From: Cetorhinus maximus
Lineage: Eukaryota
Assembly (NCBI RefSeq): GCF_964194155.1
Contig: NC_135890.1
Location: 24,428,001-24,492,000, forward strand
DNA length: 64,000 nt
Direction: 5' to 3'
Positions within the stretch are counted from its first letter, which is position 1. Each line of letters begins with the position of its first letter. The notes beneath the pieces were generated by a model. It worked only from the letters and a program-made list of their open reading frames with translations, made no database searches and was not told where the DNA came from. Shown here piece after piece: positions 39,501 to 42,500 of this stretch. The translations under genes and the position numbers were made by a program.

Positions 39501-42500
39501 TCCAGCAAAATATATTGCAACTTAGTCAATAGCCATCTCTTCACAAGTTATTCTGTAAAATATTGATGGTTATTTATGTGGGAATTTCAAGGAATGTAAT
39601 TTTTTTTTACTTGGGTCAACCATATAATGTAGTGCTCTTAATTAACAGCTTCAGAGAATAATCTTGAGTTTGGTAAGCTGTATATAATGGCCGACATTTC
39701 TTTTCAGTGGAATGAAACATATCTTACCTGCTGCTTTGACCTCTGTCCAACCATTGAAAAGCATAAGAAGTATAAACAGAGCATTATTTAATTTGTAGAA
39801 CAATATGCTAGTGTGGGTGTATTGCAGGTGGCCATGCAAGAGCTGCAGCTATGAATGTGCAAAATATGTGAAGTAGGGAGGTCATCATCAAGCAGTCCAA
39901 GTAATACTGTTCAGACCCTCCCCCAAGTTAGTTTAGCAACTATTCAACTGTACGTTTGTCATATCACTCCGATCTCAATCTCTCACACATGCACAGACTA
40001 ATACTTAATTCTGTAGTTTAATTAACTTGCAACAAGTTTTAAAAAATACGTGCATTAGTATGCAATGAGCGGAAGACAGCTATTATATTTGTACAGAAAA
40101 GACTGAATATACAGCAAAGATGTTAATACATAATTTCCCCTTTGTTGAATTGGTCATTTCCTTGATTATATACAAATCCTTTGTAAGAGTAGAAGTGCAG
40201 TGGAAAATGTGGTTGCTAAGTCTTAGGAAAAATGCTCATTCTGTACGATACTGTTTTGATCCCCAAAAGCAACACAAGGAAAACAATTCTATTTCCCCCC
40301 ACCTGATAAATCTTTACTGTATTAGTTGAAGCCCAATACTATAATAGTCAGCTCTGAAGAAGAGTCATACAGACTCAAAATGTTAACTCTGTTTCTCTCT
40401 CCACAGATGCTGCCAAACCTGCTGAGTTTTCCAGCATTTTCTCTTTTTATTCCAGGTTTCCAGCATCCACAGTATTTTGCTTTTACAATACTAACAGTCA
40501 GCTTGCTGACTTAAAAATGTGCAACTTGGCTCAACCAATTCCTTTTAGAAAATGAAAAAAAACCATTTCTTCCATGAAGAGCATGAGCCCACTTCCTAAA
40601 GAATGAGCTCCTTTTGCGATCCATGTAAAAGCCCAGGTGTGTTAGTATGTTTAATAGAATCAATACAGTACAGCACAAAAGGCAGCCATTCATTAAATCA
40701 CGTCAGTGCCAGATCTTTTGAAGAGCAATCCTGAGAGTCCTAATTTTAAATTTTTTCCTTCTAGTATTGATCCAATTTCCTTTTAAAGACTAGATTTGAA
40801 TCTGTTTTCACTGTGCTATCAGGCACTCCTGACCACTCATTGCATAAATAGTTTTTCAGTTATGTCTTGATTTTTTGACAATCATCTTAAATTTGTGCCC
40901 TCTGATTATTGACCTTTCAACCATTGGAAATAGTTTCTCTTTCCTTTTCTGCACTAAGGACAACAACAGTCTATCCATGTAACTGTAATCCCTCATCCAT
41001 AGAACTATTTTAGAGAGGTTGGCCAGAGTGATATATCTCTCTTATTCATCTCCTTCTCATGAGTCACACTTGCAGTGGAAGCAACCTAACTGGTAACATT
41101 GTCATCCGAGTTGCAACCAAACATGTAACCTCGGCTGACACTTCAGTGTAGTGCCGAGGGAGAGCCATAATCTCAATGTCAATTCTCAAATTTCAAAGTT
41201 AACAAATTTAGGCCAATGTTCACATCCCAGATTCAAAAAGTTGTTGGGCAAGAGCTTCCTCAGAACAGTGAATAACTGGCTAAGCACAGAGTGACTAGCT
41301 GTCAACCACCATCCTAATTGTTTACTATTCACTAATGGATACAAGTATAAGCCACATTTTTTTTTGTTCACCACTCTGGTCAATTTTGCGATGTGATTCC
41401 ACATGCACCAGGTTATTCTGCTACATGCCTCAAAGCCAGTATTGGTAGGCCACCTAACCACAGGAAGACAGAGCCAAGCCCAAATCTGACATCATCCAAT
41501 GTCCATGTGGGCATTTCCAGCCTGGGGAGGTCAGAAACTACCAATTAGAAATACAAATCCTGGATATTTATCCTATCTCCAACCAGAGACATGGTAGCCA
41601 ATCATAATGTCCCTTTTGCTGCTCCAGTTGAGAAGGTAAAAACAACAAGGGTTCCTACTGTTGCTGGCCATCTCAGTAACCCTCGTTGCAAAGAGGGATG
41701 AGGACAGGTTCAGCCTGCCAAGGCTCATACACAAAGAATGACTATGTGGATGACTCCTTAGCCCTATGTAATCATCCCCCACAGGTTACAATGTCTTTAG
41801 AGCAGGAGGAGGGAAGAAATTAAACAAAGAAATGAAACATAACAAAAGCATAGCCATTTTCTTTAATATTAGAAAAATATTTGCTGTGTTCTGTGGTGAG
41901 GATTTGCAACACAGAGAAGTTAGAACTGGTTAGTGCTTGTTACTGCCACTATAATACAAGCTTGGATTGTGTTATTAACAGCAAATTCTAAACCATGTTT
42001 ATCAAGAGGAGTTAATGGAACATCTTGGTACTGCATATTTGCTGATACCATGTATTTAAATGCAATAAAAAACACATACATAAAATAACCAGCCAAGTGA
42101 TTCACAACACCCCAATTACAAATTCCAATGGCAAGTGAATTGTACATGTGTCACGAAAGATTGGTGAAAAACTTCGCAGTCAAACTCAGTGTCTGAAAAT
42201 AGCTTTGTTGTCTCATTACCATACATTCAAACTTGAGTTAAACCAATTATGAACACAATACTCTCACGAGGCTTCAACACTTAATGTATGTCAGCCAACC
42301 AGGCTCTTCGGCCTGTCAATGCGAAGGTGCAATGCAAATTGTGCCCAAGCAATTTTTTTCTAAATGGGAGATTCAAAGCACCAAGGCAATAGAGTTTCTG
42401 CAGTTTTTTGAGACAATACATTGACAGTAATGTGTACAATACATTTCTGCTTTGATCTCCTTCCCATCAAATACCGATATTTTCCAAAGTTACGGAAGCT

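Follow-up and report, generated by a model that had tools for sequence, protein, structure and literature searches.

A 15-nt exon that preserves the reading frame lies within the PUS7 gene of Cetorhinus maximus. It is very probably the orthologue of a neural microexon of human and zebrafish PUS7, likely skipped by default and likely included in neurons under the control of SRRM3/4. The microexon is already known; what is new is an orthologue that is missing from the three C. maximus models. Inclusion and neural regulation in this shark are likely on grounds of orthology, because the orthologues are nerve-cell-specific in human and zebrafish. The finding is an annotation fix, a further orthologue of a catalogued microexon, and its value is as a pointer.

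Host gene and exon

The window analysed is a 64,000-nt stretch of C. maximus contig NC_135890.1. PUS7 is encoded on its minus strand from 51711 to 9411, in 15 canonical coding exons that comprise 1,953 nt plus TAA. This assembly is identical, letter for letter, to the 651-amino acid C. maximus isoform X1 model. The host is identified as PUS7 by the match of exon 5 to positions 98-145 and of exon 6 to positions 147-182 of the human 5KKP chain. The relevant features are:

9411..51711, minus strand: PUS7 coding span, 15 coding exons, reproduces the isoform X1 model
47299..47443, minus strand: PUS7 exon 5, 145 nt, where the R3H-like insertion domain ends, donor CAA/GTAAGT, phase 1
39728..39742, minus strand: microexon, 15 nt, phase 1-1, N to KVKAAD, identical peptide in 9 proteins of 4 species
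37415..37526, minus strand: PUS7 exon 6, 112 nt, re-entry to the catalytic core
34914..34991, minus strand: PUS7 exon 7, carries the catalytic Asp (GTKD)

The intron that hosts the microexon is 9,772 nt long; its numbering as intron 5 presumes a single non-coding first exon. The first-pass annotation had read the microexon from minus-strand sequence that is indeed present at this place, and its junctions at 47299, 39742, 39728 and 37526 are exact. It had also described a swap of ALA-N-PRKH for ALA-KVKAAD-PRKH, and translation of both forms bears this out with the frame kept: the skip reading is TALANPRKHSW and the inclusion reading TALAKVKAADPRKHSW, both free of stops. The catalytic Asp exon (34991-34914) is two exons beyond the microexon junction, as had been proposed; this residue is D284 in the shark and D294 in the 661-amino acid mammalian protein. 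The boundaries read CAG/AGG...CAG/GTAAGA. The motif of the quoted sequence occurs a single time on this strand, and a 201-nt stretch around the microexon has a single genomic match. The microexon is also spanned by a 3,729-nt contig of sequencing run X1, which may be the source sample, with the listed differences about 750 nt distant.

Other variation was seen along the gene. A tandem acceptor, TAGCAG, occurs at exon 11 (23738 / 23735), and because of it isoforms X1 and X2 differ by one Ala. In isoform X3 (608 amino acids) the 129-nt exon 8 (34104-33976), right after the catalytic exon, is skipped in frame. Elsewhere in the window, open frames occur at 12110-13290 (plus strand), 17754-18245 (minus strand) and 3301-3759 (plus strand), which we take to be decayed LINE reverse-transcriptase fragments. 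CpG ratios are raised (0.64-1.1) at 54500-55500 and 58500-59000, where PUS7 and a neighbour may have their promoters or first exons.

Just upstream of the PUS7 ATG, a frame at 51841-51713 on the minus strand shares 67% identity with the extension at the N-terminus of catshark isoform X1; it is one nucleotide out of register with that ATG. Among vertebrates, 95 PUS7 models of 685-735 amino acids carry an extension of about 55 residues, averaging 8.1 K+R and 1.3 D+E, a composition that resembles a mitochondrial presequence. No description of a mitochondrial-type PUS7 extension was found among the literature matches listed, including the available part of PMC13022450.

Splice signals and chance patterns

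Splice signals were scored by simple counts. From upstream to downstream the elements are:

39833..39838, minus strand: TGCATG at -96, presumably an RBFOX-type motif
39764..39780, minus strand: pyrimidine-rich tract set back from the acceptor, within a 67-nt AG-free zone
39761..39763, minus strand: UGC at -21, candidate SRRM3/4 element, a role suggested by the available part of 10.1101/2024.09.17.613571
39743..39751, minus strand: 9 intronic nt preceding the acceptor, (S)WTE in frame, compare catshark SWTEVKAAD
39722..39727, minus strand: donor GTAAGA (CAG/GTAAGA, 8/9 consensus match)

Pyrimidines make up 75% of positions -40 to -21, vs 53% of -20 to -4, and the last 11 nt before the acceptor are purine-rich. 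A second TGC is found at -41, and no UCUC motif occurs within 158 nt upstream. The exon has the length (3-27 nt), frame preservation and canonical sites of the microexon class, together with its architecture of strong donor, set-back pyrimidine tract, long AG-free zone and UGC near the acceptor. A very high-copy short interspersed repeat, at 40350-40485, precedes the microexon by about 600 nt.

Long introns contain many fortuitous patterns of this kind. Open AG/3n/GT(A/G)AG patterns occur 12 times in the 9,772-nt intron, 3 of them using the microexon's donor, and 300 Markov-shuffled introns gave a mean of 7.65 ± 3.2, so that the bare pattern by itself is not beyond chance. This frequency is what speaks for a chance splice-site pattern, a reading that is scarcely credible here: none of the 300 shuffled introns produced KVKAAD, and the peptide is that of annotated isoforms at the same junction in four species. 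These orthologous isoforms refute a chance origin. When the microexon is set against nine decoys, its donor is the best (8/9 vs 4-7) and its AG-free zone the longest (67 nt vs 6-33 nt). The exon is singled out by its peptide, the best donor, the longest AG-free zone and the set-back pyrimidine tract. The UGC near the acceptor, to which the first-pass annotation had drawn attention, is correctly positioned but weak as evidence, with a TGC at -30 to -6 of 95 of the 292 YAG sites in the same intron (33%); it was dropped as stand-alone evidence for SRRM3/4 control.

Occurrence in vertebrates

A comparison of 351 vertebrate PUS7 proteins left 328 with a scorable junction (23 were dropped). The skip form, with one residue at the junction, is found in 242 of the 328, and a seven-residue (18-nt) insert in 67, from mammals, a frog and teleosts. 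KVKAAD is present in nine, which come from 4 of the 21 cartilaginous-fish species:

Amblyraja radiata (thorny skate): 5 proteins, isoforms X1, X2, X4, X6 and X7
Chiloscyllium plagiosum (whitespotted bamboo shark): 2 proteins, isoforms X1 and X3
Scyliorhinus canicula (small-spotted catshark): 1 protein, isoform X3
Callorhinchus milii (elephant shark): 1 protein, V9KHF5

All four species also possess a skip isoform, and KVKAAD is invariant in a holocephalan, a skate and two shark orders. The description of the exon as hidden is wrong if it is taken to mean undescribed, as annotations of four cartilaginous fishes already contain the peptide and the event has been catalogued and tested. The skip form alone is found in 17/21 cartilaginous-fish species, as judged from gene models, irrespective of the tissues that support them; these include C. 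maximus (3/3 models) and the white shark (3/3 models).

All inserts replace the same junction residue. KVKAAD compares with KVRTAAD, KVRTPAD and EVKTAAA in other vertebrates, the shark form being one residue shorter; at 15 nt vs 18 nt in most bony-vertebrate forms, the exon has the 3-nt deficit that had been anticipated. A human counterpart with KVRTAAD had been proposed. That peptide was found in 15 mammalian proteins; the human isoform sequence itself is absent among the matches, and the human link is based on the eLife orthology table plus macaque and other mammalian isoforms. One medaka species has a six-residue insert (2 proteins) and a killifish an eight-residue one (1 protein). The K/E-V-K/R start and small-residue end are kept across inserts. 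The sequence drifts in teleosts, where inserts begin with E or A and are without the D. The invariant five-residue shark form implies that the exact insert length is not fixed across vertebrates. The odd inserts SKFY, GIDHSA, VTDLRPGS and AISFSLSLKA are probably prediction errors and were set aside.

In S. canicula isoforms X1, X2 and X5 the peptide is SWTEVKAAD, from a 24-nt exon that uses an acceptor 9 nt upstream. The C. maximus window encodes WTEVKAA in frame, but has TG instead of the catshark's upstream AG, and because this AG is lacking the 24-nt form looks lineage-specific. Indirect support for conservation of the flanking intron DNA across species extends to just these 9 intronic nt, via the SWTEVKAAD peptide. 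A recognisable insert is absent from the only four models of jawless species compared, one lamprey and three hagfish, which have a diverged 26-residue linker.

Published events and neural regulation

The orthologous event has been characterised in zebrafish. In the available part of PMC12626424, pus7 event DreEX0059894 is an 18-nt, neural-specific, SRRM3/4-responsive exon, with PSI of 91.5 in neurons and 85.2 in cerebellum. In six of seven other listed tissues PSI is 0 (heart is 12.3). Loss of eMIC activity gives a dPSI of -26, i.e., a partial response. The human orthologue HsaEX0051317 has a neural dPSI of 86.6, and +95.4 on eMIC overexpression. The RT-PCR primers given there translate to DGQRVI and HSWPKN, and because these peptides bracket the junction the zebrafish event can be assigned to the same junction. 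The published bands of 107/125 show a 23-nt mismatch with the 84-nt skip amplicon that we count; the 18-nt difference between them agrees. The same source has pus7 among 21 selected zebrafish microexons validated by RT-PCR. Its deletion uncovered a cryptic exon and was left out of phenotyping; 18 other, clean microexon deletions produced no gross defects. For the cis-elements, the portion of 10.1101/2024.09.17.613571 that was available includes the human PUS7 event among its tests of UGC variants. There the UGC aids inclusion and is not strictly required, and the response of the cis-architecture is alike from shark to mammals for the tested microexon set, with elephant-shark orthologues.

The preferred reading joins the exon, splice sites, frame and peptide given above to the same peptide at the same junction in isoforms that databases list for four other cartilaginous fishes, and to the 18-nt version in bony vertebrates. 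In it a weak acceptor region and a strong donor would keep the exon off until SRRM3/4 acts via the upstream UGC, a step published for orthologues and extended here to C. maximus. Two loci in the C. maximus genome carry an SRRM_C (PF15230) domain above the cut-off, one of them on the same contig as PUS7; they probably represent SRRM4 and SRRM3, one each. The exon might instead be a silent relic, its sequence retained in the C. maximus lineage and no longer included. The three C. maximus and three white shark models, all without the inclusion isoform, fit such a loss; yet all 15 nt encode the peptide of forms included elsewhere, each splice site is strong and undamaged, and the coding potential of the 9 intronic nt upstream agrees with that in the catshark, which makes a relic improbable.

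Position and possible role of the insert

The R3H-like insertion occupies human residues 163-235 (PMC8599909, available part). The insert site corresponds to human N244, nine residues past it, and the insert lies in the flexible linker between this RNA-binding domain and the catalytic core. Linker length ranges from 17 to 48 residues among 111 distant homologues, with most gaps at the insert position, and basic residues are common in the linker. In AlphaFold2 models the skip and inclusion proteins of the elephant shark contain the same elements, and the top fold match is 5KKP. With inclusion, the loop that leads from strand 217-224 into the following core strand is longer, a predicted five-residue helix is lost and confidence falls. 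The pLDDT of two ten-residue blocks around the site is 65-77 in the skip form and 50-73 in the inclusion form. Low-confidence loops are no demonstration of a real conformational change.

The fold is predicted to be unchanged, with growth of a low-confidence loop only. A longer tether could then alter the swing of the R3H-like domain over the active site, with a modest shift in the RNAs pseudouridylated in neurons. An altered choice of substrate in neurons is put forward tentatively: the insert may retune it because it falls in the flexible linker between R3H-like domain and core. In the available text of PMC8794802 the yeast ID-I domain has flexible linkers and was observed in two orientations; without it, modification changes 2-4 fold, site-selectively. 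Since loss of the whole domain does only this much, a five-residue change of linker may do little. The broadest version, in which all jawed-vertebrate neurons switch to a PUS7 whose longer tether moves the R3H-like domain to a new position and alters which mRNAs and tRNAs are pseudouridylated, is rather unlikely. If true, it would tie a pseudouridine map specific to neurons to the SRRM3/4 programme. Natural length variants exist for it: 15 nt in sharks (plus the 24 nt of the catshark) and 18 nt in bony vertebrates.

Two other accounts take the exon as real. It may be neural and nearly neutral, a passenger of SRRM3/4 in a tolerant loop, conserved mostly by constraint on splice signals, and this has about the same tentative standing as altered substrate choice. 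The 17-48-residue range of the linker, the drift of the teleost sequence with 5 to 8 added residues across inserts, and the 18 uneventful zebrafish deletions (PMC12626424, available part) are what near-neutrality would lead one to expect. It accounts less well for a single junction, always in frame, in sharks, teleosts, frogs and mammals, for a KVKAAD unchanged from holocephalan to skate and two shark orders, and for the persistent K/E-V-K/R start and small-residue end. Alternatively, the basic loop KVKAAD-PRKH (net +1) could bind protein, importin or RNA and so change localisation or partners. Its exposure as a low-confidence AlphaFold2 loop and the frequent basic residues of this linker in distant homologues agree with this; however, the charge is not conserved, because the inserts of teleosts begin with E or A and are without the D, and no evidence of a partner was found. 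A role of this kind is unlikely.

The matter is of some interest because PUS7 variants cause intellectual disability (PMC8451555, available part). Human and zebrafish neurons include the exon at high levels, and the human protein has been solved in its skip form. For the inclusion form neither a structure nor an assay was found, and no study of its function is among the top matches listed by the literature search, which covered papers available without subscription. The role of that isoform should be easy to assay.

Comparison with known systems

The closest likeness is to zebrafish DreEX0059894 and human HsaEX0051317, with which the shark exon shares the gene, junction, phase 1-1, frame preservation, upstream UGC and a similar peptide. 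It differs in length, 15 nt rather than 18 nt, and neural inclusion and the SRRM3/4 response, measured in those species, are extended to the shark by orthology. The A. radiata, C. plagiosum, S. canicula and C. milii isoforms have an identical peptide at the same junction, unlike the three C. maximus models, which are without it. With the ID-I or R3H-like insertion of PUS7 (5KKP, 7MZV; available parts of PMC8599909 and PMC8794802) the common feature is an insert in the linker following the domain; in contrast to the shark inclusion form, 5KKP is a skip form. Finally, the exon resembles members of the SRRM3/4 (eMIC) programme in its length (3-27 nt, a multiple of 3), strong donor, set-back tract, AG-free zone and UGC. 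It departs from them in having no UCUC within 158 nt upstream, and its dependence on SRRM3/4 is a probable one.
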